A DNA stretch of 64,000 bases, taken from contig DAORMC010000002.1 in NCBI GenBank assembly GCA_035440305.1, positions 1,295 to 65,294 on the forward strand. The letters run 5' to 3'. Positions 1,697-44,966 of the stretch are shown here, piece after piece. The position numbers and the translations under genes are program-made. Each line of letters opens with the position of its first letter. Position 1 is the stretch's first letter. The notes beneath the pieces are model-generated. The model was given only the letters and a program-made list of their open reading frames with translations. It was not told the DNA's origin and did not search any database. The DNA comes from Pirellulaceae bacterium. Its GTDB lineage: Bacteria; Planctomycetota; Planctomycetia; Pirellulales; Pirellulaceae.

Positions 1697-4600
1697 ATGA
1701 CCGAACCGCGAAGCAAGGAAGAGAGCACGACCGACGATGCCTTTCGATCGCCTTCGAAGCCTACCTTCGCACGACTCTCCCCTTCGCCTGACTCCGACGT
1801 GATCGATTCCGATACCTGGTCGCGACGTTGCGTCGCAGGACTGTCCGAAGACGATCGACGTCGATTCGAACGAGCGTGCGATCAGGGAGAAACGGAGCTG
1901 CGGGGAGGGGCCGCCCTGGAACAGGTCGCCGAGCGGGTCGATGTTTCCGAACCGATTCGGACGCTGGTGCTGCTTGACCTCGCGAAGTGCGCCGTCGAGT
2001 CGATGGCGCGCGAGGCGCGCGACGCCCGAGTCGCCGAGATCCTGAAGACTCTTCCTTCGCTGAGCGGAAACGAGGGAGCGAGGAAGGAACTTGTCGGCTT
2101 CGCGGACGGGTCCGGCGATCGTTCGGACGATACCGAGTCGCCGGTGCTACCTCCGACTCATGAACTCGTCAAACGCCTCCCTTCCCCAGGCTTATCGAAG
2201 CTGTATGTCGCGCGTCGCACGAAGCTCAATCGTCTCGAGTGCCTCAAGCTGGTGAACCTGGCCGAGATATCTCATCGCGAACTGGCCGCTCGAATCGCCG
2301 ATGAGGCCGAGCGCGCCTCGAAGCTGTCCCATCCCGGTCTGGTGCAGATCTTCGATGCCGGCGAAATCGCCGGGCACTGCTTTATCGCGATGGAGTACAT
2401 GAACGGCGGGAGTCTGGCCGATCGGATCTCGGCCGGACCTCTGCCGTGGGAAGATGCGATCCGGATCATCGCGACGGCTGCCAGGGCGCTTGATGCGTTG
2501 CATACCAAGGCCCGGCTGGCTCACGGCGACATCAAGCCGGCCAACCTGCTCTTCACGAGGACGATCGAAGGAGAAGAGCTGATCAAGATCGCCGACTTCG
2601 GTCTCTCGTCCGAGTTGGTCGAACAGGCTCGTGCGACGTCGGGCGAATCCAGGGGATACGTCTTCGGTACCGCCGGGTACGTCGCCCCCGAACTGCTCTC
2701 TTCCGAGGCGCGGGATTCGACCGTACTGCCGTTCGACGATCGGGTCACCGCCGACATCTTTGCACTCGGGGTCACGGCCTACGAAGCGATCAGCGGACGG
2801 CTGCCGTTCCAGACCGGGAGAGCGACCGATCCGTTGGGAGTGCTGAAGCATCCTTTTCGTCCGCTCACCGAACTTGTCCCCGGCGTGCCGAACGTCGTGG
2901 GGTACGCGATTCGTCGCGCCTGTTCGGTCGATCGTCGGGAGCGTTATCTGTCCGCCAAGGAGTTCGCGCGAGCGCTGGAGGGTTGCTTGGCGAATCGGGG
3001 GAGCGGCGCCGTCACTTCAGAGGTCGCTCGAAACGAACCGACGATGAGCATCGATCCCGAAGCGAAGTCATCGAAGCGATTCGGTCATAGGCAGCCGATC
3101 GTCATCATCAGCGCGATTGTCGCAACGGCGATCTGCGCCGCCATCGGTTCGGCGGTCTTCTCCTCGCGGTCGCGAATCGAGACGAGTTCGCAGGACTCCG
3201 CCGAACTCCCGAACGAGTTTTCGGATCTTCGACGAACATCGCCGGCTGTCGTCAGTCGCCCCGAATTGACCTCGGACTCTTCGGATCTGAAGCGACTGAT
3301 GTCGCGAGGTCTCTCGCGCGATAGCGCCGAAGCGGTCCTCGAGGTCAACAATGATTTTCTGGTGGCGCTGCGAGGTTCGTCCGGGTCGAGCTCGGCGGCC
3401 GAAACCGTACTGAACCTGCTGTCGGAGGTGGACGAGTCGCGGATCGGCAGCGAGACGATCGTCGCGAATCCTCAGATCGCCTCGTTTGCCGTCTATTCCG
3501 GGATCGAGTCGCTGCCGGCGTTCCTGCACGCCGTGGCTCATCCGGACGAGGACGAGCATTGCGTGACGAATCTCTGTATCCGGCATCCCGACTCGGCGAC
3601 CGTCGCGTCGTCGGCGATTCTCTGGCTCAGACGCATCGCACCGCTGCGTGCCCTGCAGCGGCAAGGGCTCTACGGCGCGGATGAAGCGCTGCTGCACGCC
3701 TCGGGCGTTCCGGAATACGAAGCTTGGGTCGAGCGGATCCTGGTCGAGCGGATCGACCGCGATCCGGGGCGGACGCTGCAGTGGCTGACGATCTATCTGG
3801 AGACTCATGACGCCATTCGGGCTCGCCTGGAAGATCGGGCGTTCGCGGCATCGTTCCCGAGAACCTGGGAACGATTCGTCGCTCTGGTCGATCGAGACGC
3901 GCGAACGGCCGAGGACTTCGCGATCAACGGCGATGCCTGGAACGTGTTGGCGATGGAGCAGGGGGATCGCCTGATCGACCGACTCGGACTGTTGGCCGCG
4001 CCGATCTTCGCCGGTAGCGAAGCATTGCCGGCCGATCCGGAACTTCGACGTCTCGCGGCGGAGTACCTGTTGGTCGGCTATCGTCCGATCGTCGAGGCAT
4101 TGTCGGATGCCGATCTTCGGCGGAACGGCGATTTCCTGGAGTTGCTTCGCAAGCGTCTGCCGGCCGAGGTCCTGGCGGAGGTCTGCCGACAGATCAACGC
4201 CGAGACGGCGGCCGGAACGGGCCCGGCTACCGCCGCTCGTCTCGCAGGGCTCGGGCGAGATCAGATCGTGGCGGATCTTTCCGGCGAAGACCTGAATCGT
4301 TGGGCAGCCGAGGATCTCGTGCCCCAACTGATCTATCTGCGTCTCGGCCTGAAGCTCGTCACCGGCGACTCGCTCTTCGGCGTCGAGCGGCAGGCGTTGC
4401 TCAAGCAGATCGTGATCGATGTGGTGACCCAGGGAGTGCCGATCGCCGCCAGCCGTCTCGGATTGCCGGTCGATCAAGCCAATGCGTTCGCGCAGCACTT
4501 CCCGATCGGCTACGAGATCGGAGAGAACGCGGTCAAGGATGCGATTCGACGAGAACGACTCGACGCGCTGGTGACGATCGACTCGGCCCCCGAGACCTTG

Positions 4601-7542: not shown

Positions 7543-9293
7543 ACGAGGTCGTCGTGATCGCCGCATTGAACTCCGGTCTCCGCGGGCGGCGAGGGCACGT
7601 GACGCTGGTTTCGAACCGACGAGCTGCCGAAGATGCTGCCTCCGAGAGGATCGCCTACATCACCGGCCTGATCAGAATGTCGGTCGAAGGGAGCGATCTC
7701 GGGGCCGAGTTCGTCGCGGGAGACGACTTCCTGATCGGCAAGGACTTCCTCGGAGTCGCCGTTGCCGCGTCTCAGGAAACGTCCCATCGATCCGCGCCAG
7801 AAGTCTTCCTGATCTGGAACTGCCGCACGTCGGGTCTGACGGAGGGGCAGCGCACGCGCGCTCTGGATTGGCTCCGGGAGCTCTCCGGCGATCGTGGAGC
7901 GCTGATCGGCGAGGTCACATCCGGAGCGTCGACCCAAACGGTCGTCTTCTCGGAAACGCTGAGCTCGTGGAGTGCCGCCTACTGCAGTCAACTTCCTGCC
8001 GGAAATGGCCTCCCCAAAACGGCTCACGAATCCGCTCGACTAAACGGATCGCAAGCCTCCGGTGTTCCCTTGCGCTGGACCAAGCTCATCCCCATCGGCG
8101 TTATCCTCGGTCTCGCTATCGGAGGCATCCTCGCGATCGCGAACCTGCCTCCCGGAAGGAAGCCCGAGAACGTGAAGGGAGATCGTTCGGACGAACCGGC
8201 GGCTGGGGATACCGACGAGGCACCGGTCGAATCGCTCGTCACCGATGCGCCGGATATCGATCCGTTCCGAAACTGGCAGGCCGATGCTGCGGCTTTGGAA
8301 CGAGGGTTGGTCGACGAGGCGTTGCCGCTCGACCGTGCCGTTAACGAACTGGCCGCCGTCGTCGACGAGCTGACCCGAGCCTCGTTTCGGAATGATGACG
8401 AGTATCGTCAGGCCTACGACCTGATCGGACGCTCGGCGCGAACGATTCGCGATCGCGTGACCAAGGGGATGGAGGCCGATGCGGACGAACTGCGACGCTC
8501 CCTGGAGTCGCTCCCGAACTTCGAGGACCTGAGAGAGTCGTATGAGACCGCTCGGGCGAAGGACCAGTTGCTCGCCGATCTCGAAGCGACGGTGCGGCCG
8601 CTGCCGATTCCGATGGAGTCGACAGGCGATGTCGAATCGGCGCGAGATGGATTTCTGAGAGAGGTCGAGGCCGCGGTCGTGGCTCGGGCTTCGACGCTGT
8701 TCGCCTCGACGTCCGATCGCGCATCGACAGGCGCCGTGATCGGTTGGTTACTGCGTGCTTCCGAATCGGAGTTCGGCCGGGAACTGGCCGGTTTCGGTTC
8801 GTCTCGACGATTGGGGGGCGTCTTCCGTGCGATTTCGAGACTCGAAACGACCGACGACGTCGAAATCATCGTCACGGCCGATGAGGTACCGTTCGGCCGC
8901 CCGGTGAAGTTCGTTCTGGTCGACGGTGCGGAAGCCGAGTTGGTCTTCTCCGGCGAACCCGAATCGAATCGCGGTGGATTGCAGCGGTTTCCGCAAGAGT
9001 CGGGCCGAGGCCGCTGGACGGTTCGCGGCGTCACTCTGAAGAACCTGTTGGCCTGTCGGCGGATCATCGTCGTTCTGGCGGCTCGCGGTCCGCGGTTCGA
9101 GTTCGAGTTCGATCACCGAGTTCTCGCGAAGGAAACCGGACGGACGCTCTGCCCGTCGATACGTGTCGAAGAGGGACGGTTCGAGGGGCGATGCGAGGTT
9201 CTCCTGCGAGGCGATTCGATGCGACAGGTGTTGGCAGAGATGCACCGCGCATGCGAACTGCCTTCGGACGATTCCGCCGGAGGACCGAACTGA
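7539..9293 (+). CDS. Hypothetical single-pass membrane protein (last gene of the kinase-GTPase operon)
   Basis: ATG 7539 overlaps the GTPase stop (ATGA). It has a ~185-aa N-terminal module, then the helix 'LIPIGVILGLAIGGILAIANL', an acidic linker, a helical region and a beta-rich C-terminus. No motif recognised. Confidence 0.65.
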   Translation: MNEVVVIAALNSGLRGRRGHVTLVSNRRAAEDAASERIAYITGLIRMSVEGSDLGAEFVAGDDFLIGKDFLGVAVAASQETSHRSAPEVFLIWNCRTSGLTEGQRTRALDWLRELSGDRGALIGEVTSGASTQTVVFSETLSSWSAAYCSQLPAGNGLPKTAHESARLNGSQASGVPLRWTKLIPIGVILGLAIGGILAIANLPPGRKPENVKGDRSDEPAAGDTDEAPVESLVTDAPDIDPFRNWQADAAALERGLVDEALPLDRAVNELAAVVDELTRASFRNDDEYRQAYDLIGRSARTIRDRVTKGMEADADELRRSLESLPNFEDLRESYETARAKDQLLADLEATVRPLPIPMESTGDVESARDGFLREVEAAVVARASTLFASTSDRASTGAVIGWLLRASESEFGRELAGFGSSRRLGGVFRAISRLETTDDVEIIVTADEVPFGRPVKFVLVDGAEAELVFSGEPESNRGGLQRFPQESGRGRWTVRGVTLKNLLACRRIIVVLAARGPRFEFEFDHRVLAKETGRTLCPSIRVEEGRFEGRCEVLLRGDSMRQVLAEMHRACELPSDDSAGGPN

Positions 9294-9622
9294 CGCCACG
9301 GAACCGGTTTCCCGCGATGTATCGGGAGCATCCTGGCGATGAGGTCGGCGCTCCACTCGGCTCGTCCTGCCTGACGAGACCGAAGAACGAAGCGAGGATT
9401 CGCGAGAACAACCGACGGAACGCCCGAAGGACCGATCGCGACGACGAGCGGTCCGAACTCGATTCCGGTCCCCTCAACATCCGCAGCCCGTGATGCCGAC
9501 CGCAGCCGGCGATCCCGGACACCCCCTTTCTACGACATTCGTTTCGTGCTTCAATGGGCGCACGTTGACCGACAGCCGGTCGGTCGAGGGCGTTCCGGAA
9601 CTGCGTATCGAACGAGGGGTCC

Positions 9623-11059
9623 ATGAGCGTGCGCGTCGTCGTGGCGGAGGGAGACGGAGTCGGTCCCGAGATCACTCGCGCGGTCCTGAAGATCATCCGC
9701 GCGGCCGAAGCGCCGATCGAATGGGAGCCGATTCGGGTCGGACAGGCGATCTACGAACAGGGAAACACCTCCGGCGTTCCGGCCGATGCCTGGGGAGCGA
9801 TCCGCCGTCACGGCGTGCTCCTCAAGGGGCCGATCACGACGCCGCAGGGGAAGGGCTTCAAGAGCGTCAACGTCACCATCCGCAAGGCGCTCAACCTGTT
9901 CGCCAACGTCCGTCCCTGCAAGGCCTACGCCCCGTTTGTCGCCTCGCCGCATCCCGGCATGAACCTGGTCATCGTCCGCGAGAACGAGGAAGACCTGTAC
10001 GCCGGCATCGAACACCGACAGACCCCCGAAGTCCGGCAGGTCCTGAAGCTGGTGACTCGCCCCGGCTGCGAGAAGATCATCCGCTACGCGTTCGAGTACG
10101 CTCGCGCCTACGGTCGCCGCAAGGTCTCGTGCATGACCAAGGACAACATCATGAAGCAGACCGACGGTCTGTTTCATCAGGTGTTCGACGAGGTCGCGGC
10201 GGAGTATCCCGAGATCGAGGCGAACCATTTCATCATCGACATCGGAGCGGCGCGACTGGCCGCCAGCCCCGAGATCTTCGACGTCATCGTCACGCTCAAC
10301 CTGTACGGCGACATCCTCTCGGACATCGCCGCCCAGATCGCCGGCTCGGTCGGCTTCGCCTCGTCCGCCAACGTCGGCGAGCAGGTGTCGATGTTCGAGG
10401 CGGTGCACGGCTCGGCTCCCGACATCGCCGGACGCGGGATCGCCAATCCGTCCGGCCTGCTGATCGCCGCGACTCAGTTGCTCGTTCACGTCGGCCTTTC
10501 GGAGCAGGCCTCGGTCATCAAGAACGCCTGGCTCCGTACTCTCGAAGACGGCATCCATACCCCCGACGTCCATCGCGAAGCGATCAGCTCGCGCAAGGTC
10601 GGTACCGACGACTTCGCCGAAGCGATCATCGAGCGACTGGGAAGCGAGCCGCGAGTGCTCGAACCGGTCCGCTACCGGACGACGCGTCCGATTCAGGTCA
10701 GCTATCGCACGACGCCGACCGAGCAACGACTGGTCGGCGTCGACGTCTTTCTCGGCTGGGACCAGGAAGGGCGAGACCCGAACGTGCTGGCGGAGCATCT
10801 GCACCGGGCGTCGACCGACACGCTGCGCCTGGGGCTGATCACCAACCGAGGGGTCAAGGTCTACCCCGACGGCCTTCCCGAAACCTTCCGGACCGACCAT
10901 TGGCGTTGTCGCTTCAAGGCCGAGGCGGACGAGATCCCTTACGCACGGGTCATCGAACTGCTGCAGCGAATCGACCAGGCCGGCCTGCGCGTCATCAAGA
11001 CCGAGAACCTCTACACCTTCGACGGCTCGCCCGGCTTCTCGTTGGGGCAGGGGGAATAG
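9623..11059 (+). CDS. icd: Isocitrate dehydrogenase (isocitrate/isopropylmalate dehydrogenase family, long 478-aa form)
   Basis: 'VVVAEGDGVGPEI', 'LLKGPITTP', 'NVTIRKALNLFANVRPC', 'NLVIVRENEEDLYAGIEH', 'LNLYGDILSDIAAQIAGSVG' and 'FEAVHGSAPDIAG' are the canonical family motifs. Confidence 0.9.
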   Translation: MSVRVVVAEGDGVGPEITRAVLKIIRAAEAPIEWEPIRVGQAIYEQGNTSGVPADAWGAIRRHGVLLKGPITTPQGKGFKSVNVTIRKALNLFANVRPCKAYAPFVASPHPGMNLVIVRENEEDLYAGIEHRQTPEVRQVLKLVTRPGCEKIIRYAFEYARAYGRRKVSCMTKDNIMKQTDGLFHQVFDEVAAEYPEIEANHFIIDIGAARLAASPEIFDVIVTLNLYGDILSDIAAQIAGSVGFASSANVGEQVSMFEAVHGSAPDIAGRGIANPSGLLIAATQLLVHVGLSEQASVIKNAWLRTLEDGIHTPDVHREAISSRKVGTDDFAEAIIERLGSEPRVLEPVRYRTTRPIQVSYRTTPTEQRLVGVDVFLGWDQEGRDPNVLAEHLHRASTDTLRLGLITNRGVKVYPDGLPETFRTDHWRCRFKAEADEIPYARVIELLQRIDQAGLRVIKTENLYTFDGSPGFSLGQGE

Positions 11060-11266
11060 CGCACCGAGCGGTCCCGAGCGGACGATTTCCGATGGGGCGG
11101 AGGGGGACGATTCCGGTTTCGCGAACGGCGGTCGGGACGACCGGAGCGGTCCCCCTTGGCAACCGCTCCGGACCGGCCAACGGTAGGAGACCGGTGTTTC
11201 GAACGATTTCGTCTCGGAACGCCGTTCCCGCTTCCGCTCGCTTCCTCCGATCGTCGGACCTCGACC

Positions 11267-11998
11267 ATGAACGGCATCGCGATTCTCGGCGCCTCGGGGA
11301 CCATCGGCAGCGCCGTTGCGCGGCGGCTGGTCGCGGCCGGGCGTCCCGTTCTTCTCGTCGGGCGTGACGCCGAGCGACTTGCACCGCTCGCCGCCGAACT
11401 CGATCAGCCGATGGAGACGGTCGACTTCCGCAGCAGCGCCGATCTCGAAGCGGCTCTCGAGCGACGGATCGCGAGCGGCCTGCAGCTCGGCGGTATCGTC
11501 AACGCCATCGGCTCGGTGCTGCTGAAGGGGGCTCATGCGACGTCGGACGAGGAGTTCCGCGAGACGCTCGAGACGAACCTCTTCACCTCGTTCGCGGCAG
11601 TTCGCGCCGCCGGCAAGCTGCTGCGCTCCACGGGGGGCTCGATCGTCCTCTTCGCCAGTGCCGCCGCCGAGATCGGCATCCAGAATCATGAGGCGATCGC
11701 GGCGGCCAAGGCGGGCGTCATCGGACTCGCACGCTCCGCGGCCGCCACTTACGCCGGCAACGATCTCCGCTTCAACGTCGTCAGCCCCGGTCTGGTCCGG
11801 ACCGAGATGACCAAGCGGATCTGGCAGAATCCCGCTTCGGCCGCCGCCTCCGAATCGATGCACGCCCTGAAGCGTCTGGGCGATCCCGATCAGGTCGCGT
11901 CGCTCGTCCAGTGGCTGGTCGATCCGCAGAACGACTGGGTGACCGGCCAGGTCTTCGGCATCGACGGCGGTCTCGGCCACGTACTCGCTCGTCGGTAG
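11267..11998 (+). CDS. Short-chain dehydrogenase/reductase (SDR)
   Basis: Start at ATG 11267 (MNGIAILGASGTIGSAV = TGxxxGxG Rossmann motif). It also has 'NAIG' and the 'AAAKAG' Y/AxxxK-region equivalent. The ORF-track start at 11156 adds a non-homologous leader. Confidence 0.8.
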   Translation: MNGIAILGASGTIGSAVARRLVAAGRPVLLVGRDAERLAPLAAELDQPMETVDFRSSADLEAALERRIASGLQLGGIVNAIGSVLLKGAHATSDEEFRETLETNLFTSFAAVRAAGKLLRSTGGSIVLFASAAAEIGIQNHEAIAAAKAGVIGLARSAAATYAGNDLRFNVVSPGLVRTEMTKRIWQNPASAAASESMHALKRLGDPDQVASLVQWLVDPQNDWVTGQVFGIDGGLGHVLARR

Positions 11999-12109
11999 CG
12001 TGCGAACGGCGGATGGACGATCCGCCGTCCGAACGGCGACCGGCCGACGCACTCCCTTTCGTCCGCTTCGCTACGGCTCTCGAACGAACGCGATTCTCGC
12101 GAGACGACC

Positions 12110-13366
12110 ATGAGCAATCGACCGGTGGTGATCGTCGGTGCCGGCCTCGCCGGCCTCTCCTGCGCACGCACGCTGCTCGCTCGCGGGATCGACGTCGTCG
12201 TCGTCGAACGGGACGCCCGAGTCGGCGGCCGCGTTCGGACCGATCTGATCGACGGCTTTCGAGTCGACCACGGGTTCCAGGTCCTTCAGACCGCCTATCC
12301 CGAAGCGATCGCGCAGCTCGACTACCGTCGCCTGGACCTGCAACGGTTCGAGCCCGGCGCTCTGATCCGAACCGACTCGCGAACCGTTCGCATGGTCGAT
12401 CCGTGGCGATCCCCGGGCAGCGTGCTGAGCACCTGCTTCAACGGAATCGGTACGCTGGCCGACCGATGGCGTCTGGCTCGGTTGCGGCGCCGTGTGACTC
12501 GCGTCTCGGTCGACGAACTCGAGCGGCAACCCGATCTGCCGACCGCCGAGTACCTGAGTCGCGTGTGCGGGTTCTCGAGCGACATGATCGAGCGGTTCTT
12601 TCGTCCCTGGTTCGCCGGAGTCTTTCTCGAGTCGTCGCTGGGATCGAGTCGCCGATTCTTCGACTTCACCTTTCGGATGTTCGCGACCGGCGATGCGGCG
12701 CTGCCGGCCGACGGCATGCAGGCGATCGCGGAACAGATGGCCGAACCGCTCGGCGCCGAGCGGCTTCGCCTGTCGACCGACATCGCCGAGATCGCACCGG
12801 GGCAGCTGCTGACCGGAGCGGGCGAGCGTCTCGACGCGCGAGCGATCGTCGTCGCGGTCGACGGCTTCGCTGCTCACCGACTCTTGCCGTCGTTCGTCGC
12901 CGCTCCCGAGTTCGGCTCGACCTGCTGCCTGCAGTATGCCGCTCCCGAGCCACCGTTCGCCGGCGCTTGGCTGATGCTCGACGGGACGGGGCGAGGCCCG
13001 ATCAATCATCTGTGCGTTCCGAGCAACGTCGCTCGAAGCTACGCCCCTCAGGGCGAGTCGCTGGTAAGTCTCTCGACCGTCGGGCCGGGTCGAGCGGACG
13101 AGGTCCGGTCGCGGGCTCTCGATCAGGCTCGCGCCTGGTTCGGCGATCAGGTCGACCGCTGGAGACTGCTCGCGAAACAGACGATTCCTCGGGCAGTCCC
13201 TCTGAAACGCGCCGGTTCCGACGCGCCGGGATCGCCGCGTCTGGCGGAGGGACTGTACTGCTGCGGCGACCATCGTCGGGCGCCGTCGATCCAGGGAGCG
13301 CTGGCGAGCGGTCGCGCGGCGGCCGAAAGCCTGCTCGCGGAACTGCGAGGGGCTGCAGCGGCCTGA
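12110..13366 (+). CDS. NAD(P)/FAD-dependent oxidoreductase (amine-oxidase/phytoene-desaturase-like)
   Basis: N-terminal 'VVIVGAGLAGLSCARTLLARGIDVVVVERDARVGGRV' dinucleotide-binding motif, and C-terminal 'GLYCCGDHRRAPSIQGALASG' FAD motif. Confidence 0.85.
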   Translation: MSNRPVVIVGAGLAGLSCARTLLARGIDVVVVERDARVGGRVRTDLIDGFRVDHGFQVLQTAYPEAIAQLDYRRLDLQRFEPGALIRTDSRTVRMVDPWRSPGSVLSTCFNGIGTLADRWRLARLRRRVTRVSVDELERQPDLPTAEYLSRVCGFSSDMIERFFRPWFAGVFLESSLGSSRRFFDFTFRMFATGDAALPADGMQAIAEQMAEPLGAERLRLSTDIAEIAPGQLLTGAGERLDARAIVVAVDGFAAHRLLPSFVAAPEFGSTCCLQYAAPEPPFAGAWLMLDGTGRGPINHLCVPSNVARSYAPQGESLVSLSTVGPGRADEVRSRALDQARAWFGDQVDRWRLLAKQTIPRAVPLKRAGSDAPGSPRLAEGLYCCGDHRRAPSIQGALASGRAAAESLLAELRGAAAA

Positions 13367-27532: not shown

Positions 27533-27644
27533 GGTCTCCGTGCCCTCCGGTCCCCGTGCCCTCAGGTCTCCGTGCCCTCCGGTCCCCGTGCTCCCCGGTC
27601 CCCGTGCTCCCCGGTCTCCGTGCCCTCAGGTCCCCGTGCCCTCC
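27533..27644. repeat. Tandem repeat, 7 x 16 bp (GGTCYCCGTGCYCYCM)
   Basis: Units at 27533, 27549, 27565, 27581, 27597, 27613 and 27629, read directly. It is preceded by 'cagcccgcagcgtcagcaagg' (27511-27532), which is the other half of the 37-bp unit at 31170-31334. Confidence 0.9.
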
Positions 27645-27776: not shown

Positions 27777-29225
27777 ATGAGTCGAACGCCTCGCATCACG
27801 CGGCGCACCTTGCTGCGCGGAACCGGAGCTGCCTTGGCGCTCCCGTGGCTCGATGCGATGGCTCCTTCGCTGGCGCGAGGCGATTCGAGTGACGCCGCAG
27901 GCAAGCCGCCGGTCCGACTCGCCTTCTTCTATGTCCCCAACGGCGTGCACATGCCGGCGTGGCGTCCGCCGACCGTCGACGAGTCGCAGGTCACCGTCCA
28001 TGCCGAGGGGCGTCGCGAGCATTCTCTCGAGACGCTCCCCGAGATCCTCCAGCCGCTCGACTCGGTCAAGGATCGAGTCGTCCTGATCAGCGGCCTCGCA
28101 GCCGATCATTGCCACAGCAACACCGCGGCGCATGAGCCGGCGGGGGGCGGCTTCTTGGTCGGTGCGCCGTGCAAGCATTCCGAGGAGCCGGAAGTCGGCG
28201 GCATCTCGGTCGACCAGCTGCTGGCGCGCGAGGTGGGGATGCACACGCCGGTCGACAGTCTGGCGCTCGGCATCGATCCGGGGCACCGCGGCGATCACGG
28301 CTACAGCGGCACCTACATGTCGCACATCTCGTGGCGCAGCCGGACGACGCCCGCGTCGCTCGATCTCAATCCCAAGGTTCTCTACGAACGGCTCTTCGGT
28401 TCGCGACGCCTGCGCCGTCCCGACTGGAACCGCTCGTCGACCGATCGGCTGACTGCGAGCGATTCGATCGACGCGAGCATTCTCGATCTGGTTCGCGAGG
28501 ATGCGGCGACGCTGCAGCGTCAACTCGGCTACGAGGATCGTCGCAAGCTCGCCGAGTACCTGGAAGGGCTGCACGGCATCGAGCGGCGGATCGCGATCAC
28601 CGAGCGCGATGCCCACTCGCACCATCAGGACGCCTTCTCGGCCGATCCGACCGCCGATGCCGACGAACGAGAGATCGCGCCGCTGATCATTCCGGAAGGG
28701 AAGGGGATTCCGAGCGTCTACGGCGACCATGTCGAACTGATGCTCGACATCCTGACGCTTGCCTTCCGCACCGACACGACTCGGGTCGCGTCGTTCCTGT
28801 TCTCGTACGAGAAGTCGGGGCGATCGTATCCCGAGATCGGCGCGCCGGGATCGCATCACAGCACGTCGCACCATCAGGACAAGGCCGAGAACCACGCCGA
28901 ACTGACGAAGATCAATCGGCATCATATGGAGCTGTTCGCTCGCATGCTCGAGCGGATGGCGGCGATTCCCGAAGGAGACGGCTCGCTGCTCGACAACGTC
29001 CTGATTCTCTACGGCTCGGGGATCAGCGACGGCAATCGCCACAACCATGACGATCTGCCGATTCTGGTTGCCGGCGGAGCGGGAAAGAGCCTGCGAGGAG
29101 GGCGGCATCTGGCGCTCGAATCCAAGACGCCGATCTGCAATCTCTATCTCGAGATGCTGCATCGCGCCGGCCTGCCGATCGAACGATTCGGCGACAGCAC
29201 CGATCTGCTCGGCGGATTGAGCTGA
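27777..29225 (+). CDS. DUF1552 domain-containing protein (Tat-signal)
   Basis: Characteristic N-terminus 'RITRRTLLRGTGAALALPWLDAM'. Size and position next to a DUF1592-family gene match the known planctomycete gene pair. Confidence 0.8.
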   Translation: MSRTPRITRRTLLRGTGAALALPWLDAMAPSLARGDSSDAAGKPPVRLAFFYVPNGVHMPAWRPPTVDESQVTVHAEGRREHSLETLPEILQPLDSVKDRVVLISGLAADHCHSNTAAHEPAGGGFLVGAPCKHSEEPEVGGISVDQLLAREVGMHTPVDSLALGIDPGHRGDHGYSGTYMSHISWRSRTTPASLDLNPKVLYERLFGSRRLRRPDWNRSSTDRLTASDSIDASILDLVREDAATLQRQLGYEDRRKLAEYLEGLHGIERRIAITERDAHSHHQDAFSADPTADADEREIAPLIIPEGKGIPSVYGDHVELMLDILTLAFRTDTTRVASFLFSYEKSGRSYPEIGAPGSHHSTSHHQDKAENHAELTKINRHHMELFARMLERMAAIPEGDGSLLDNVLILYGSGISDGNRHNHDDLPILVAGGAGKSLRGGRHLALESKTPICNLYLEMLHRAGLPIERFGDSTDLLGGLS

Positions 29226-31168
29226 TGCTCCCGAAACGTTGCCGTCCTCTGCGTTCGATCGTCGCGGCGACGCTGGTCGCTCTCGTGATGACGATCGCTA
29301 CAGGCGATGCCTCGGGCCAGGAGGACGATTCGCTCTCGTGGGATCGGAAGATCCACGGTCTCGTCGGCCGCTACTGCGTGCATTGTCATGACGGCGACGA
29401 TCCGAGCGGGAACGTCGATCTGACCGCCGAACATCCCGGTCAGATCCGCGAGCAGTTCGAGACGTGGCAGAACGCCCTCCAGGCACTGCGCGACGAAGCG
29501 ATGCCTCCGGACGACGAACGCCAGCCGAGTGCCGAAGAGCGCGATCTGATGATCCGTTTCCTCGAGTCGACGCTGCTGGAACTTGACTGCGACCAGGTCG
29601 ACGATCCGGGGCGCCCGATCCTCCGCCGTCTGAATCGGACCGAGTACGACCTGACGGTGCTCGACCTCACCGGCCTCGACCTGCGACTGGCCGATTCGTT
29701 CCCGCCCGACCCCAGCAGTTACGGATTCGACAACAACGGCGATGCGCTGACGCTCGCGCCGGTCCAGGTCGAGCAGTACGATCTGGCGGCCCAGCAGATC
29801 GTCGCCGCGCTGCTGGCCGGGAGTCCCGACGCCGACGATCCGAGCGATGCGTCGGTCGAGGCGTTTCGGCGCCTGTTCGCTCCGGCGCTCGACGACCGAG
29901 GAGCCTGGTCGCTCGACGATCCCGAATCGGCCGCTCGCGCGATCCTGTCCGACTTCGCGACGCGAGCCTATCGTCGGCCGGTCGAGCCGGAGCAGAGCGA
30001 GCGGTTGATGACGATCTTCCGTCGGGCTCGCGAAGCGGAGCGTCCGTTTCCCGATTCGATCGGCCTGGCGCTGCGCGGCATTCTCATCTCGCCGCGCTTC
30101 CTGATTCGGATCGAGCGGACCGAGCCCGATGCGATCGAGCCCTATCCGGTCGATCCGTATGATCTGGCGAGTCGCCTGAGCTACTTCCTGTGGAGTCGTC
30201 CTCCCGATGCGGCGCTGCTGGAGCGAGCGGCCGACGGCTCGTTGCAGGATCCCGAGGTGCTGCGAGCCGAGACGCTTCGGATGCTCCGTGACGATCGGAG
30301 CGATGCGCTGGTCGAACACTTCTTCGGCCAGTGGCTCGACCTGCGAGCCGTCGCGACGCATCAGCCCGACCGGGAGCGATTCCCGGAGTTCGACGAGGCG
30401 TTGCGGGGCTCGATGCTGGCCGAAACGCGCGCGGTGCTCGCCGAGATGATCCGCGAGGATCGTCCGTATGTGACGATCCTGGACGCCGACTTTACCTATG
30501 TCGATGCGAGACTGGCGCAGCTGTACGGACTGGAGGGAGAGTTCGACGAGCGGCTGACGCGGGTTTCGCTGACCGATCGTCGACGAGGAGGGGTGCTCAC
30601 CAGCGCCGCACTCCTGATGACGCAATCCGATCCGCAGCGAGTCAACGTGCCGCGGCGAGGGAACTTCATCGCAGGACGGATCCTCGGATCGCCTCCGCCC
30701 CCACCGCCCCCCGACGTACCGCCGCTGGACGAGGCGACGGCCGACGACGGCTCGCTGACGCTCCGCGAACGGTTCGAGCGGCATCGGAGTCGTCCCGAGT
30801 GCATGGGCTGTCACTCGAAGATCGATCCGCTCGGCTTTGCGCTGCAGAACTTCGATGCGATCGGGCGATGGAACGACGTCGAAGCGGGCAAGCCGATCGA
30901 TGCCTCGGGGACGCTCCCCGACGGCCGTTCGTTCGACGGCCCTGAGGCGTTCAAGGAGCTGTTACTGGCGGAACGCGAGACGTTCGCGCGGACGTTGTCC
31001 GAGAACCTGCTGATCTACGCCCTCGGCCGAGGGCTGCATCCGAGCGATCGCTGCACGATCGATCGGATGCTCGAAGCGAGTCGCGAGAAGGAGGGTGCGT
31101 TCTCGGAACTGATCGTCCAGATCGTGCTGAGTCGCCCGTTCCGCTATCGAAGGAATCCGGAAGACTGA
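29225..31168 (+). CDS. DUF1592/DUF1588/DUF1585-family protein with an N-terminal planctomycete cytochrome-c (PSCyt-like) motif
   Basis: The ATG overlaps the upstream stop by 1 nt (TGATG at 29223-29227). 'YCVHCHDGDDPSGNVDL' near the N-terminus and 'PECMGCHSKIDPLGFALQNFDAIGRW' near the C-terminus. Confidence 0.8.
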   Translation: MLPKRCRPLRSIVAATLVALVMTIATGDASGQEDDSLSWDRKIHGLVGRYCVHCHDGDDPSGNVDLTAEHPGQIREQFETWQNALQALRDEAMPPDDERQPSAEERDLMIRFLESTLLELDCDQVDDPGRPILRRLNRTEYDLTVLDLTGLDLRLADSFPPDPSSYGFDNNGDALTLAPVQVEQYDLAAQQIVAALLAGSPDADDPSDASVEAFRRLFAPALDDRGAWSLDDPESAARAILSDFATRAYRRPVEPEQSERLMTIFRRAREAERPFPDSIGLALRGILISPRFLIRIERTEPDAIEPYPVDPYDLASRLSYFLWSRPPDAALLERAADGSLQDPEVLRAETLRMLRDDRSDALVEHFFGQWLDLRAVATHQPDRERFPEFDEALRGSMLAETRAVLAEMIREDRPYVTILDADFTYVDARLAQLYGLEGEFDERLTRVSLTDRRRGGVLTSAALLMTQSDPQRVNVPRRGNFIAGRILGSPPPPPPPDVPPLDEATADDGSLTLRERFERHRSRPECMGCHSKIDPLGFALQNFDAIGRWNDVEAGKPIDASGTLPDGRSFDGPEAFKELLLAERETFARTLSENLLIYALGRGLHPSDRCTIDRMLEASREKEGAFSELIVQIVLSRPFRYRRNPED

Positions 31169-31169
31169 C

Positions 31170-31334
31170 GGTCCCCGTGCCTCCCAGCCCGCAGCGTCAG
31201 CAACGGGCCCCCGTGCCTCCCCAGCCCGCAGCGTCAGCAAGGGGTCCCCCGTGCCTCCCAGCCCGCAGCGCCAGCAAGGGGTCACCGTGCCTCCCAGCCC
31301 GAAGCGCCAAGCGCAGGGGTCCCCGTGCCTTCGG
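31170..31334. repeat. Tandem repeat, about 4.5 x 36-38 bp (GGTCCCCGTGCCTCCCAGCCCGCAGCGTCAGCAAGG)
   Basis: Units at 31170-31205, 31206-31242, 31243-31279 and 31280-31317, plus a partial unit at 31318-31334. The array starts 2 nt after the stop codon of the DUF1592 gene. Confidence 0.9.
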
Positions 31335-31649
31335 CAACAGAAAGGCTGCGACCGGGGGCGGTCGCACGACGAACGTGGCCGCGGGCACTCCGTGCCCGAG
31401 GGTAGGTTTCGCTCGGACGCCGATCGCGCTTCGAGGCTGGTCAGGTATCGCAGCGAAGCCTTGCCTCGGCCACGGAAGTTCGGACCTGCCACCGCGGTCG
31501 GTCGCACTACGTCGCAGCGATCGACGAACGACAAGGCGAAGCTGCGGGGGCCGCCCACAAACACTTTGAAGCTCGGTAAACCAAGATGCCGGCCCAGTCA
31601 GCTTCAGCCATCCGTTATGCCAAACTCTGACTGACGAACAATGGAACAC

Positions 31650-32864
31650 CTACACTGACTTGAGCTCCTCAAAATGTGTAGTTGCATGGGCGAGATCCAG
31701 TCGGGGAAACTTGTACTGCGAATTTGAATCGCGGACAAACCGATCTAGGGCCAGAACCACAAAGCTGCGCGGATCGCTTATCCCAACTGGAAACCCTGTG
31801 ACGTGGCAATTTTTACCGTTAAGCAACTCTGTGTTAAGCCCCCAGGACTGGCCTTTCGCCTCGACGAGCTTAAGCATGGGGGTCTCGCAGATATAAGTTA
31901 GCGGCGTCATGGCCAAACCATCATTTTGCCCAGTGAAAAGAACGCAACGCATGCGAAGGGGCTCAGCGTTGCGTGGCAACAGCCACGTGAAGAACGCATC
32001 TGGCGCAACTGGCTTTCTTATTATTACGCTTTGGTCCACAACGAAATAGTGGCACAATTCCTTACTTGACGGCATGGGCTGGGACTGAAAACGCGAAGGC
32101 CCCTCAGTCCAGCGCTCGGCAAAAAGCGTAGCCTGATAGTGAATCGTCAATAGCCCGGTTAACTTGTAAAACTGCTCAAGTACGTCGTGATCGCGTGTCA
32201 ATATTGTAGTATTCCTGCCGGCAGCAAGGGTAACCATGGCAGCCGTCGCGACCAGCTCTTCATCCGTGAAAACATTCGCGCCAACGGAAATCTCTCGCTG
32301 ACCTTTCCGAAAGATATGGAAATCTCGTTCGTTGCCCGCTTTTTGAAAGAGCGTGTTTAGCTCCTCCGATGAAGGCTGGCGACCCTGATTCGCGACGAAT
32401 TCATCGACGAAGGACTGTGCTCTTCGCTTCCTTTCTGCGAGGACGTTAACATACCAGTTTCGAAATACTCCGCATGGCACTCCCCACGCAGCATCTTCAT
32501 CAAAAAGGATCGTGGAGCTGACCGCCTCCTTGGCGTCATTGAAGACGGGAACCATGTGTCCGTTGTAGAACGGATTTGACCTCCAAGGCAAAAGTTCCTT
32601 CCAAACACCGGTGGTCATCGTAATGCGTTTCTGCCCGAGCGCGTCCCAAACGGTTTGCTTAACTTGATGGTCTGTGAAGAAGTTCGTATCAAGAAAGTAG
32701 TCGTGAGTGTCCTGGTCACCGGCGATGAATTCGGCTACCTGATCATAAGACACATGGAGCTTCTCCTGAACCAGCGGATAAAAAAGGCGATGTGGCGCAG
32801 TTCCGGCTGGCCGGGGCTGGGTCTTCTCAAGGATGAATCGGATCGTTTGGCTTTGCCTGGGCAT
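31650..32864 (-). CDS. PIN-like nuclease-fold protein with an unrecognised ~165-aa C-terminal domain, in a low-GC insertion
   Basis: Start at ATG 32864 (MPRQSQT); the 32924 start would overlap the upstream gene. The acidic PIN signature is read in order: 'YFLDTNFF', 'GVWKELLPW', 'FTDEELVATAAM', 'TTILTRDHDVLEQF'. It is the only long ORF in the low-GC stretch. Confidence 0.65.
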   Translation of the reverse strand: MPRQSQTIRFILEKTQPRPAGTAPHRLFYPLVQEKLHVSYDQVAEFIAGDQDTHDYFLDTNFFTDHQVKQTVWDALGQKRITMTTGVWKELLPWRSNPFYNGHMVPVFNDAKEAVSSTILFDEDAAWGVPCGVFRNWYVNVLAERKRRAQSFVDEFVANQGRQPSSEELNTLFQKAGNERDFHIFRKGQREISVGANVFTDEELVATAAMVTLAAGRNTTILTRDHDVLEQFYKLTGLLTIHYQATLFAERWTEGPSRFQSQPMPSSKELCHYFVVDQSVIIRKPVAPDAFFTWLLPRNAEPLRMRCVLFTGQNDGLAMTPLTYICETPMLKLVEAKGQSWGLNTELLNGKNCHVTGFPVGISDPRSFVVLALDRFVRDSNSQYKFPRLDLAHATTHFEELKSV

Positions 32865-32877
32865 CGTGATTTCCGGC

Positions 32878-34071
32878 TCATGTGATTCGCCTGTGGGCCA
32901 TCGCTGTCGGAGTCTGCGCGGCACAACCGAGGCGTCTTGCCTTGATCCGGCAGTACGGCGGGAGCGTATCGGCGAGGTGGGCGATCGATCCGCATGGAGC
33001 CCAGACGTCGCTTCGCAACGGTTCGTGGAATCCCTCGATCACGAACCCGACTCGGCAGAGTTCTCCGAGGAGCGTTCCGAGCGAGTGCGCGAACTCGATC
33101 GTCTCGGGTTCGCGGAGCGGGCTGATCGTCCCCTTGCCCTCGTCGCCGATCGACGGCAACACGGTCCGCCGATCGAGTTCGTATCGTTCGCGCTGCGGAT
33201 TCCAGACGGCTCGAAGCGCTTCCGGCATCTTATGCTGCGACACGTACGAGCCGCCGGTTCGGAGCACGCGATGCACCTCGCGATACGCCGTCGTCACGTC
33301 GGGCAGATAGCTGGTCAGGACCGGCTGAACGACGATGTCGATCGACTCGGATTCGATCATGGTCAGGGCGTCGGCCGAGGCGACGAACGACCGAAGAGAA
33401 ATCCCGAGCCTGTCCGCCTGACTCCGATCCCGCTCCAGCTGACTCGGACTCAGATCGACTACCGTCACGATCGCGCCGGCCATCGCGTACAGCGCCGCAT
33501 GAGTTCCACCCGCTCCGCCGAGCAGCAACAGTCGCTTCCCGTCGAGCCGTTCGTCGCGGAGCCACGGATCGAGTCCCGCGACGGCCTGCTCGCGAGTCAA
33601 TTCGGGAATCGTTTCGGCCGCGAAGCGAGGATCGTTCGACAGCCGGTCCCACGCGATCCGGTTCCGCTCGATCGCCATCGCCCGATCGACGAATGTCTCG
33701 TCGGATGCGGTCATCAGCGCCGCGACCGCTTCGGCAAGCGTCGGCGGATCCCCCGTTTCGAGTCGACGCTGAACCAATTCGATCGGACTTGCGATCCGGC
33801 CGGCGAGTTCGATGCGCGGGGGAACCGGTTCTCGAAGACCGACCCATCGCGCTCCCGCCCCCCGGCACAGCATCTCGCCCAGCCGAAATCCGACGGCGAC
33901 CGCCAGGCTCCCGAGCCCCTCGTCATCCGAACCGGCACACGCCGTCTCGATCAGCCGGTCCAACTCGGCGACCGTCTGCGGAGCGGGCAAGTGCAGCTGC
34001 CGAGCGATGTCGTCGACGCCGGCCGCGACGGCTCGGATCGTCCGCAGATGATCAGGATCGACGGCACTCAT
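32878..34071 (-). CDS. Class I SAM-dependent methyltransferase with a ~170-aa N-terminal extension
   Basis: Start at ATG 34071 (MSAVDPD). Motif I 'RLLLLGGAGGTHAALYAMAGAIVTVVDLS', post-I acidic residue, and 'IDIVVQPVLTSYLPD ... VLRTGGSYV'. Confidence 0.8.
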   Translation of the reverse strand: MSAVDPDHLRTIRAVAAGVDDIARQLHLPAPQTVAELDRLIETACAGSDDEGLGSLAVAVGFRLGEMLCRGAGARWVGLREPVPPRIELAGRIASPIELVQRRLETGDPPTLAEAVAALMTASDETFVDRAMAIERNRIAWDRLSNDPRFAAETIPELTREQAVAGLDPWLRDERLDGKRLLLLGGAGGTHAALYAMAGAIVTVVDLSPSQLERDRSQADRLGISLRSFVASADALTMIESESIDIVVQPVLTSYLPDVTTAYREVHRVLRTGGSYVSQHKMPEALRAVWNPQRERYELDRRTVLPSIGDEGKGTISPLREPETIEFAHSLGTLLGELCRVGFVIEGFHEPLRSDVWAPCGSIAHLADTLPPYCRIKARRLGCAAQTPTAMAHRRIT

Positions 34072-34341
34072 GGTCCGGATTCGACGAGGGACTCGGTCAT
34101 GGCGTCCGAACGGTTCGGACGTTCGGCTCGCCGCTACTCTACCGTCCGCCTCGTCGGTGCTGACGATCGGATTGCGGGAACCGGCAGGGAAGGGGACCGG
34201 AAACGCGAAAGCACCTTCCTGCCACTCACGCCGAACTTGAATGTCGACCTGATGGCCGTCACGCTGACGATCGCTCGACGAATCGAATGACGCGATGCGA
34301 GTCGATCGAGCCGAACATACGCAACGAACCGGAGACGAGCG

Positions 34342-34839
34342 ATGCAGATTCCCGAACCGAGTCCCGAACATCTCTGGCTATCGCGACTGGTCGGCGAGTG
34401 GACGATTCGCGGCGAGTACCGGATGGGCCCCGATCAGCCGACGACCGAAACGACCGGTCGCGAATCGGTTCGATCGCTCGGCAAGCTCTGGACGATCGGC
34501 GAGTGGTTCAGCGGCGGCGATGCCGCCGAATGCGATTCGATCATGACGCTCGGTTTCGATCCGCGGCAAGACCGCTTCGTCGGCACCTTCGTCACCGGCG
34601 CAATGACGCATCTCTGGCCCTACGTAGGGACCCTCGATCCCGAATCGAGACGTCTGACGCTCGACTCGGAGGGGCCGGACTTTCTGGGCGGAAAAGGGAT
34701 GAGTCGCTATCAGGACATCATCGAGTTCCAGGACGATGACCATCGGACGCTGACCGCTCGCGTGCTCGGCTCGGATGGAGAATGGCGAACGTTCATGACG
34801 ACGCATGCCCGACGAATCCGAAACGACTCGAACGTCTGA
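34342..34839 (+). CDS. DUF1579 domain-containing protein
   Basis: 165 aa. 'PEPSPEHLWLSRLVGEWTIRGE' at the N-terminus and the overall size match the DUF1579 family pattern. Confidence 0.7.
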   Translation: MQIPEPSPEHLWLSRLVGEWTIRGEYRMGPDQPTTETTGRESVRSLGKLWTIGEWFSGGDAAECDSIMTLGFDPRQDRFVGTFVTGAMTHLWPYVGTLDPESRRLTLDSEGPDFLGGKGMSRYQDIIEFQDDDHRTLTARVLGSDGEWRTFMTTHARRIRNDSNV

Positions 34840-40457: not shown

Positions 40458-40739
40458 AATTGGCGTAACGCGACCGCCCCCGGTCGCACCGGATTGGCGT
40501 AGTGTCCCCAAGTCCCGTCAGGGACGGCCGACAGTAGCCCACCGTTTATCGGTGGGTCTCGTCTCGCCAAAGAGCGTCCGCGAGTCCCGAAAGGGACGCA
40601 AGAACCCGAACGACGAACGAGTCTCTGCCGTCCGACAATTCACCGTCTGTCGTCCCTTTCGGGACTTCGAGTAAAGGGTGACGCGACTCCGTTCCCGGCG
40701 ATGAATCGCCGGGCTATTTTCTGTCGTCCCTATCGGGAC
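40458..40739. repeat. Cluster of short GC-rich palindromic (REP-like) hairpins
   Basis: gcgaccg-ccccc-ggtcgc (40470-40488); gtccc-gtca-gggac (40512-40525); cccaccg-tttat-cggtggg (40538-40556); gtccc-gaaa-gggac (40584-40597); gtccc-tttc-gggac (40652-40665); cccggcg-atgaat-cgccggg (40694-40713); gtccc-tatc-gggac (40726-40739). 'attggcgta' occurs twice (40458, 40492). Confidence 0.8.
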
Positions 40740-40933
40740 TCACCGGAGCGGCCCGTACGAACGGTGGACTTGTTGCCGCTCAAACGACGACGTGCCAACG
40801 GCGCTCGCACGAATGCGACCGACGTCGGTCGCACCTGCATCTTCACCGATACGGCTGATCAGGAGCCGTTCCTTGTCTCGATGCGGAGCCGAGACAAGGA
40901 ACGGCCTAAGCGAGTCGCTCGAAGAGACCTTGG

Positions 40934-44498: not shown

Positions 44499-44657
44499 CG
44501 CTCCTCCGATCGATCGCGTCGTTCGACTCGGCGCGAACTTGCCGAGTCGATCGAGGTGCCACGGTAGCGCAACGGATCGATGCCGCCAAGGGCGGAGCGA
44601 ATCTCGTATGTCGTCGGCGTCTTGAAGTGAGGCGATTCCCGAGCCATCGCAGTCCAG

Positions 44658-44730
44658 TCGCCCGTCCAGGAATCGAACCTGGTCCGACGGCTTCGGAGGC
44701 CGTCATGCGAATCCGACACAACCACGAGCG
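44658..44730 (-). tRNA. tRNA-Arg(CCG)-like
   Basis: Reverse complement: CGCTCGT GG TTGT GTCGGATTC GCAT G ACGGC CTCCGAA GCCGT CGGA CCAGG TTCGATT CCTGG ACGGGCG A. The acceptor, anticodon and T arms are good. The D-arm is weak (T10.T25, G8), the first pair is C1-G72, and there is no encoded CCA. Confidence 0.55.
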
Positions 44731-44770
44731 AACGACGTCGGCGGGGGGCGCCGATGGCGCAACCCCCAAG

Positions 44771-44843
44771 CGTCCCCGATGGGATTCGAACCCACGATCT
44801 CCTGCGTGACGGGCAGGCGAGCACTCCGCTGCTCCACGAGGAC
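44771..44843 (-). tRNA. tRNA-Asp(GTC)
   Basis: Reverse complement: GTCCTCG TG GAGC AGCGGAGT GCTC G CCTGC CCGTCAC GCAGG AGATC GTGGG TTCGAAT CCCAT CGGGGAC G. All four arms pair. The anticodon loop reads C-C-GTC-A-C, so position 33 is C, not U. Confidence 0.7.
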
Positions 44844-44894
44844 CGATCGGACAATGACGTTCGAACTCGGAGGGATCGAACTCGGTTTCGGAAG

Positions 44895-44966
44895 TGGGCC
44901 GGGAGGCGCTCGAATCCTCGTCTGCGGTGTTTCAGACCGCCGCTGGACCATCTCAGCTACCGGCCC
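44895..44966 (-). tRNA. tRNA-Phe(GAA)
   Basis: Reverse complement: GGGCCGG TA GCTG AGATGGTC CAGC G GCGGT CTGAAAC ACCGC AGAC GAGGA TTCGAGC GCCTC CCGGCCC A. The acceptor, D and anticodon arms are canonical. The T-stem has A53.G61 instead of G-C. Confidence 0.65.

Follow-up and report, generated by a model that had tools for sequence, protein, structure and literature searches.

We analyzed a 64-kb stretch of a Pirellulaceae genome (contig DAORMC010000002.1, positions 1,295 to 65,294; hereafter the window), in which one block of DNA at ~31550-32930 (1.37 kb) has 52% GC compared with 65% elsewhere. The block carries a single long open reading frame (ORF), located at 31650-32864 on the minus strand with its stop codon at 31650-31652, that encodes a 404-aa protein with a predicted PIN-like nuclease domain. 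This ORF had been singled out in an earlier reading of the bare DNA letters (the original prediction), and according to the ORF list it is the only real gene of the block. The composition profile drops from 0.65-0.70 GC to 0.51-0.54 at ~31550-32900, the sole trough of this kind in the window, and the gene itself, at 0.519 GC, lies far below the 1215-bp windows of the remaining sequence (mean 0.653, standard deviation 0.014, minimum 0.615; z = -9.3). GC content at third codon positions (GC3) is 0.58 in the PIN-like gene vs 0.73 in the adjacent methyltransferase gene, and the codon-usage distance between the PIN-like gene and seven resident genes is 0.157, compared with 0.04-0.11 among the resident genes themselves. 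The sharp GC drop originally proposed from three hand counts (31/60, 26/60 and 40/60, all exact) is thus borne out by sliding-window GC and codon-usage comparisons.

On the left, the foreign block begins with a low-GC 3′ trailer (31550-31649, minus strand), where 50-bp windows have 0.46-0.58 GC vs 0.62-0.78 further leftward, which puts the left border at ~31550-31575. On the right, GC climbs from 0.54-0.60 to 0.66-0.68 over 32835-32910, and the 5′ leader with the right insertion junction (32865-32931, minus strand) overlaps a window-specific 17-codon tail and the stop codon of the methyltransferase gene (32878-32931). We placed the start of the PIN-like gene at the ATG at 32864 and not at an upstream GTG (32924), because aligned homologues begin with the same 'MP(K/R)Q'; this start codon lies 13 bp past the TGA of the co-directional methyltransferase ORF (32878-34371), exactly the gap that had been predicted. 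A 150-aa GTG-initiated ORF abutting the stop codon of the PIN-like gene (31197-31649, minus strand) was judged non-coding, as it crosses GC-rich repeats and is rich in Arg, Pro, and Gly.

Next to the PIN-like gene, ORF and tRNA checks of the window revealed neither an integrase or transposase nor a tRNA gene, and no small partner ORF either, in agreement with the absence of mobility genes and of an antitoxin-sized partner claimed originally; the closest tRNA genes lie at a distance of 12 kb. No direct or terminal inverted repeats bracketing the low-GC block were found in a repeat search, and the window locus carries none of the classical marks of mobile elements (integrase/transposase, terminal repeats, attC, tRNA target). 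Searches of 30500-34500 gave no Rfam match, and the fold of the 3′ region is not significant (z = -1.5).

The PIN-like catalytic domain spans residues ~50-255 (32100-32717, minus strand), as judged from invariant acids, an AlphaFold model, Foldseek matches, and a consensus match to PIN_12. Four PIN motifs listed in the original prediction ('LDTNFF', 'VWKELL', a third motif, and 'ILTRDHDV') are indeed present at residues 58, 87, 199, and 221. Their acids D59 (codon 32688-32690), E90 (32595-32597), D201 (32262-32264), and D225 (32190-32192), as well as Y138 and R145, are 100% invariant across 98 single-module representatives of the family, which share at most ~50% identity. In the AlphaFold model (built from 16 sequences; pLDDT 87, pTM 0.88), a strand at 55-58 leads into D59 and is followed by two helices, a strand at 80-83, a helix ending at E90, further helices, and a strand at 119-121. 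Onward, the model has four extra helices (129-194), a helix at 200-215 starting with D201, a strand at 219-223 leading into T223-R-D225, and a long helix that extends to residue 254. As modeled, this is the canonical PIN order of elements with an insert, and the acids lie after strand 1 (D59), in helix 3 (E90), at the N-terminus of helix 5 (D201), and after strand 4 (D225), matching the acidic-residue positions of the PIN superfamily (Pfam clan CL0280), including its (T/S)xD motif.

The top-probability Foldseek matches are likewise PIN proteins, namely VapC 3zvk_B (probability 0.89, TMt 0.47), 6sd6, and 5ecw, and PRORP 7e8k_D, with E-values of 0.058-0.075, and the viral library returned a PIN-domain protein of Medusavirus at a probability of 0.94. 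The 70-aa insert probably degrades these structural alignments. At the profile level, the family consensus aligns with PIN_12/DUF4935 over model positions 2-171 of 172 (E = 0.043, 14.7 bits with a cut-off of 32). Further sub-threshold matches of this kind, which recurred for PIN-clan models and for no others, were obtained for PIN with the consensus (E = 0.41) and for PIN_4 (0.14) and PIN_10 (0.18) with individual members, and a PADLOC scan of the members gave a weak CARF_PIN match. The PIN and PIN_12 matches, the two with reported positions, start at strand 1. Alignment of the family with Shigella VapC (3TND_A) by hhalign lines up D7/E42 of the toxin with D59/E90 (E = 0.059); the harvest of PDB alignments for a broader VapC profile yielded only near-identical Shigella entries. 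The converging weak evidence and the invariant tetrad, with no single significant score among them, make us highly confident in a PIN-like fold, as originally proposed, and nuclease activity is predicted with good confidence.

In its architecture the protein recalls DUF4935 (PF16289, now PIN_12), a family of ~350-aa proteins in which an N-terminal PIN-like domain with a long helical insert precedes a C-terminal alpha/beta region without structural homologues, and which are monocistronic and of unknown function (PMC5499597). The window family shares this layout of PIN domain, helical insert, and unrecognized alpha/beta C-terminus in ~350-400 aa encoded by a monocistronic gene. However, the long insert follows strand 3 in the window family, not strand 2, and no individual member matches PIN_12. 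The link to DUF4935 suggested in the original prediction therefore holds as a weak, correctly registered consensus match and fails at the Pfam threshold, for which reason we do not file the family as a DUF4935 member and regard it as probably a distant sister. In the literature searched, DUF4935 is discussed as a family only in PMC5499597 and PF16289 is named nowhere else; the DUF4935 name occurs besides in a Pseudomonas genome paper.

The insert consists of four helices (model helices 129-142, 144-160, 166-175, and 179-194) at residues ~125-197 of the PIN domain (32274-32492, minus strand). It bears the invariant Y138 and R145 in a 'YYVNLLxxRKR' helix, as well as a 'GRxP(T/S)xxE' turn. An insert of ~130 aa had been proposed; the spacing from the glutamate to the third aspartate is ~110 aa, of which ~70 aa (residues 125-197) are extra helices. 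Weak Sigma70_r3 matches were found in 8/98 members (best E = 0.0016) and map to the 'GRxP(T/S)xxE' turn in the family consensus, a likeness that is motif resemblance only.

Because the last PIN helix extends to residue 254, the C-terminal alpha/beta domain, delimited by conservation and by a domain-only model at residues 256-404 (31653-32099, minus strand), measures ~150 aa and not the ~165 aa first estimated. The accompanying statement that this region is unrecognized stands. The domain is conserved at C307, E327, K337, G342, N352, H354, D374, and D390, and when modeled alone it reaches a pLDDT of 77; nevertheless, Foldseek against the PDB gave no credible match (best E = 0.56, TM < 0.25), with probabilities mostly ≤ 0.15 and a highest value of 0.33 on a 53-column match, and there is no Pfam or PDB sequence match to it.

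Tandem relatives indicate which of these residues matter for which function. Among the top 150 representatives, some 25 consist of two family modules and measure ~800 aa (including P0017, P0018, and P0020-P0027; loci L012 and L023). Module 1 always keeps all four acids and D227. Module 2 retains E90 in 2/14 cases, D201 in 7/25, D225 in 11/25, and D227 in 1/25, and still keeps Y138, R145, T223, C307, E327, K337, G342, and N352. This selective loss of acids in module 2 suggests that they serve catalysis rather than folding, and the fusion of an active with a dead module would make a dimer the functional unit. On the strength of these sequence patterns, we lean towards dimeric action.

Searches with the window protein against Pfam, NCBIfam, PHROGs, and PADLOC gave no usable match, and neither the protein nor the family profile matched any PDB sequence. 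An exhaustive profile search of 1.84 billion cluster representatives nonetheless recovered 610 of them at E ≤ 0.001, 316 of which also pass E ≤ 1e-30, a family size that a word-indexed homologue search undercounts (16-20 proteins vs 610 clusters). All assignable members are planctomycete, with Pirellulales, Rhodopirellula, and other Planctomycetota metagenome-assembled genomes (MAGs) as named carriers, and metagenomic contigs with a family gene bear planctomycete-typical neighbors. The family is apparently an uncharacterized, Planctomycetota-restricted group of ~400-aa proteins. Some members have additional regions: P0045 has a 150-aa C-terminal extension (residues 430-582), and P0039 has an N-terminal extension (residues ~50-70) carrying the motif 'CPCGSGKTLQDCC', which we take to resemble the SEC-C metal-binding motif.

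One relative (L006, 7538-9713) is a tandem family gene frameshifted into three ORFs of 168, 257, and 234 aa, either a pseudogene or a product of frameshift errors in the contig. Such a case, together with the lack of a recognizable promoter of its own, of a strong ribosome-binding site, and of a partner gene in the window, would fit a decaying or inactive foreign remnant that has no current function. Yet the window copy has the full length and all residues that are invariant in the family, and the family is under strong purifying conservation over the 610 clusters, so that we rate this explanation as highly improbable.

Each locus has one family copy. The homology of the window to 11 other homologue loci is limited to the gene, with flanks that are not alignable, and upstream and downstream alignments of five loci contain no conserved flanking DNA. 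In 9 of 11 independent loci, the family gene lies 3-12 GC points under its flanks; the GC content of the gene is steady at 0.50-0.56, while that of the hosts spans 0.535-0.65. The low-GC trough is likewise gene-sized in L009 and L001. The former (7572-12202, in a Pirellulales MAG) holds the closest genome-borne homologue, with 53% identity, as a gene-sized low-GC islet. On one side, groES-groEL ends ~130 bp before it; on the other, at ~30 bp, is a convergent gene for a class-I methyltransferase non-homologous to that of the window.

GC values so alike over different hosts could stem from an intrinsic constraint on protein or mRNA, as would hold for a housekeeping or regulatory RNA-processing nuclease that, like HARP/PRORP, acts in rRNA or tRNA maturation. 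Such a role would also agree with the apparent restriction of the family to Planctomycetota, with housekeeping neighbors such as groESL in L009, and with the presence of planctomycete PRORP/HARP 7e8k_D among the fold matches. However, GC3 is depressed too, not just GC at second codon positions (GC2), and a scan of 185,579 species representatives with a narrow peptide pattern (alignment A2) found only 3 loci. Synteny is kept in 0/15 homologue contexts, and the gene is absent at the syntenic site of two relatives described below. The HARP/PRORP RNase P (7E8K) has the PIN-like metallonuclease fold predicted here and comes from the same phylum, but it is a housekeeping enzyme of ~200 aa without insert or C-terminal domain, whereas the window gene has a patchy distribution and a foreign composition; the 7e8k_D match is weak (TMt 0.35 vs 0.47 for VapC; E = 0.073). 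An identity with HARP/PRORP was ruled out on the basis of the 404-aa length with two extra modules and because relatives lack the gene at the syntenic site. No characterized RNase family includes the product, and we consider a housekeeping role quite improbable.

The gene lies between two convergent resident genes. Upstream and co-directional with it is a class-I S-adenosylmethionine (SAM) methyltransferase gene (32878-34371, minus strand; Pfam Methyltransf_11, E = 1.4e-12), and on the other side of the insertion site is a DUF1592/PSD-family gene (29225-31168, plus strand; Pfam PSD4, PSCyt3, PSD2, PSD3, and PSD5). The wider window context is also planctomycete, with PSD/PSCyt (DUF1592), DUF1552, and DUF1579 genes and an RND pump. 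When metagenomes were scanned with the DUF1592 protein, three loci came up (L019, L020, and L021), each with an orthologue of it, while a genome-collection scan with the methyltransferase protein found no relative.

Two of these loci show the site without the PIN-like gene. In L021, the DUF1592 gene has an orthologue with 60% identity whose end is at 724, and the methyltransferase gene has one with 43% identity at 721-1839 on the opposite strand, so that the stop codons of both genes overlap tail to tail (721-724) and leave no space for a further gene. In L020, the two genes are convergent and parted by an unrelated outer-membrane beta-barrel gene (2825-3529), again with no PIN-like gene. By tblastn, the methyltransferase homology to both loci ends at residue 480 of 497, where the relatives finish in '...IKARR(R)' and the window adds 17 unrelated residues; this end of homology and the GC change together place the right junction at ~32930. 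Since the syntenic pair in L020 and L021 lacks the PIN-like gene, the gene was inserted, and the comparison with relatives, which could have found the same gene at the same GC, makes horizontal acquisition very likely. Homology of the methyltransferase ORF to its relatives starts only at residue 133, and the L021 protein has 372 aa; for the former reason, the real start of the methyltransferase is probably internal, with the ORF over-extended at its 5′ end. The junction between the DUF1592 and methyltransferase genes is variable, being empty in L021, filled by the outer-membrane beta-barrel gene in L020, and by the PIN-like gene in the window, and it may be a recurrent landing site.

A methyltransferase gene 13 bp off and co-directional, another one beside the L009 homologue, and restriction-type neighbors in L010 and L023 are what might be expected of a DNA-acting, FEN- or NYN-like PIN nuclease that works in repair, recombination, or restriction and may cooperate with neighboring modification enzymes. 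DNA flap nucleases, too, belong to the PIN-like superfamily (PMC5499597), and the helix-turn motif of the insert is weakly similar to sigma-70 region 3. Against such a function, the adjacent methyltransferases are class-I enzymes of the small-molecule/protein type (Methyltransf_11/23) and non-homologous between loci, the window methyltransferase is resident at the site even where the PIN-like gene is missing, and the fold matches belong to the VapC group and not to the FEN group. We therefore regard a DNA-acting nuclease as improbable.

Over 15 independent homologue contexts, we found neither a conserved partner nor a conserved flank, which supports the original description of a lone gene, and the small ORFs downstream of the homologues in L001, L012, L013, and L006 are mutually unrelated. 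Defence genes occur within ~5 kb in 5/15 contexts, a small sample without a matched background, and mobility genes in 4/15. In L023, a ScoMcrA_N protein is encoded 26 bp downstream of the tandem member P0018 and BrxA/B/C (BREX) genes lie 3 kb away. Elsewhere, homologues are found near an MmeI-type restriction-modification enzyme (L010), a TIR_2 protein and excisionase-like HTH_17 genes (L013), a SMODS operon and a resolvase (L017), HNH_2 (L007), a phage integrase (L015), and a DDE transposase (the P0014 locus). Other homologues, the window copy included, have ordinary neighbors.

The toxins of the VapC group (Shigella 3TND, Rickettsia VapC2 3ZVK) are the known proteins with the top-probability structural matches, and they have in common with the window family the PIN fold predicted for it, an identically ordered set of four acidic residues as (putative) metal ligands, and the motifs 'LDTN...', '...EL', and '(T/S)xD'. 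They act as dimers, as the window family may also do. In contrast to the 404-aa window protein, however, VapC has ~130 aa and neither insert nor C-terminal domain, and it always comes with an antitoxin gene upstream, whereas the window gene has a 497-aa methyltransferase ORF as its neighbor. A VapBC type II module was ruled out, given the absence of a conserved small neighbor and a protein three times the size of VapC.

A more general toxin explanation would have the gene encode a selfish, addictive PIN toxin, neutralized by its own C-terminal domain or by an unrecognized small RNA or peptide, that persists by spread of the cassette or by stabilizing the DNA around it. This explanation would suit the role of PIN as the classic fold of VapC toxins, the recurrence at unrelated sites of a tightly bordered low-GC islet the size of one gene, and the mobility genes near some homologues. 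On the other hand, there is no conserved antitoxin-sized ORF on either side of the gene, with only 13 bp upstream in the window, nor any Rfam RNA, terminal repeat, or conserved flank, and the length of 404 aa is again three times that of VapC. We hold an addictive toxin to be rather doubtful.

The gene resembles the general class of single-gene nucleases for defence or abortive infection that occur in defence islands, in that it is solitary, joins a predicted nuclease to accessory domains, and has an atypical composition and a variable location. We give an even chance to the reading that it is an acquired, monocistronic PIN-like conflict nuclease of the defence or abortive-infection type; a defence or abortive-infection role as such, the candidate function named in the original prediction, we propose tentatively, at somewhat less than even chances. 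Under this reading, an acquired gene was inserted between the two convergent resident planctomycete genes, and since it sits directly behind the methyltransferase gene, it would probably be transcribed by read-through from the latter. With D59, E90, D201, and D225 as ligands, the VapC-group PIN-like domain would bind Mg2+ or Mn2+ and act as a nuclease, with RNA as its likeliest substrate. The four-helix insert, with Y138 and R145 near the active site, may help select the substrate, and the C-terminal domain could serve in regulation, target sensing, or as a dimer interface of an enzyme that is most likely dimeric. In this scheme, the accessory domains would keep the nuclease in check until infection released its activity, which would shut down host and phage RNA. 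As a more speculative possibility, the whole family might be a previously unrecognized, Planctomycetota-specific single-protein anti-phage system of the abortive-infection type, in which a helical cap and a sensor domain with a new fold gate the PIN nuclease, acting as a homodimer or as a fused active/dead pair and spreading as a bare gene-sized low-GC cassette without recognizable mobility machinery.

Several observations weigh against a conflict nuclease. No defence model matches the family: against PADLOC-DB 2.0, a check proposed with the original prediction, the window protein hit only ApeA at E = 0.065 and no match recurred over the 98 members, and the PHROG and NCBIfam models are also without a match. 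The window copy, unlike members of the single-gene defence class, lies outside a defence island, with no defence or mobility gene in its own neighborhood. Several homologues are in housekeeping contexts, as after groES-groEL in L009, and the count of 5/15 contexts with defence genes is small and has no matched background. A viral-contig scan and tblastn searches of phages and plasmids found no homologue on phage, plasmid, or viral contigs. The relatives with an empty site are distant, at 43-60% amino-acid identity. No PIN-family sequence or structure match is significant alone, as the best Pfam score is 14.7 bits with a cut-off of 32 and Foldseek gave no match at E ≤ 0.001 (best E-value 0.058).

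Phage defence in planctomycetes has been little explored, and these ~610 clusters fall outside every curated family or defence model. If the gene is a defence nuclease, it represents a phylum-specific single-gene system with a new accessory or sensor fold; should it turn out to be an ordinary toxin or an RNase that the cell can do without, the finding would be more modest, a well-delimited horizontal acquisition of a single gene. The tandem relatives, which help to tell catalytic from structural residues, also offer a handle on DUF4935/PIN_12, whose function has been unknown since 2017. The low-GC islet recurs at unrelated sites, after groEL in one case and after a methyltransferase stop codon in another, without accompanying mobility genes.

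To the left of the foreign block lie GC-rich intergenic repeats (31173-31511; Tandem Repeats Finder (TRF) and repeat-finder families D1, D3, and I1), which are probably not part of the acquired DNA. They include a 37-bp tandem array with 4.3 copies by TRF (31173-31330), whose end is 319 bp from the stop codon of the PIN-like gene and not ~230 bp as had been stated, and two palindromic hairpins (TGCGACCGGGGGCGGTCGCA-like) at 31347-31366 and 31487-31506, the first of which scores as terminator-like on the minus strand. A CRISPR-like reading of the array was ruled out, as its copies run head to tail without spacers. The metagenome contig L019 (1-2973) is 98% identical to window positions 30037-31371, through the array and the first hairpin, after which a Sde182_NH-like gene takes the place of the PIN-like gene. 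The array and first hairpin are thus resident DNA, being common to a locus that lacks the PIN-like gene. We set L019 aside as an empty site, however, since this coverage-2 contig switches partner exactly at the repeated hairpin and may be chimeric; the switch stems from an assembly chimera or else from a rearrangement between strains at the repeat. A related array of 16 bp x 7 at 27533-27644, with 'CCCCGTGCC(C/T)TCC' in common, follows a gene ending at 27457, and the GC-rich repeats, located directly after gene ends, look like a genome-specific REP-like family. Unrelated to the PIN-like gene, the window also contains a match to the Rfam Acido-Lenti-1 small RNA (40694-40740, plus strand; 49.5 bits, which exceeds the gathering threshold) and three clustered tRNA genes (44657-44966, minus strand) for Arg-CCG, Asp-GTC, and Phe-GAA.

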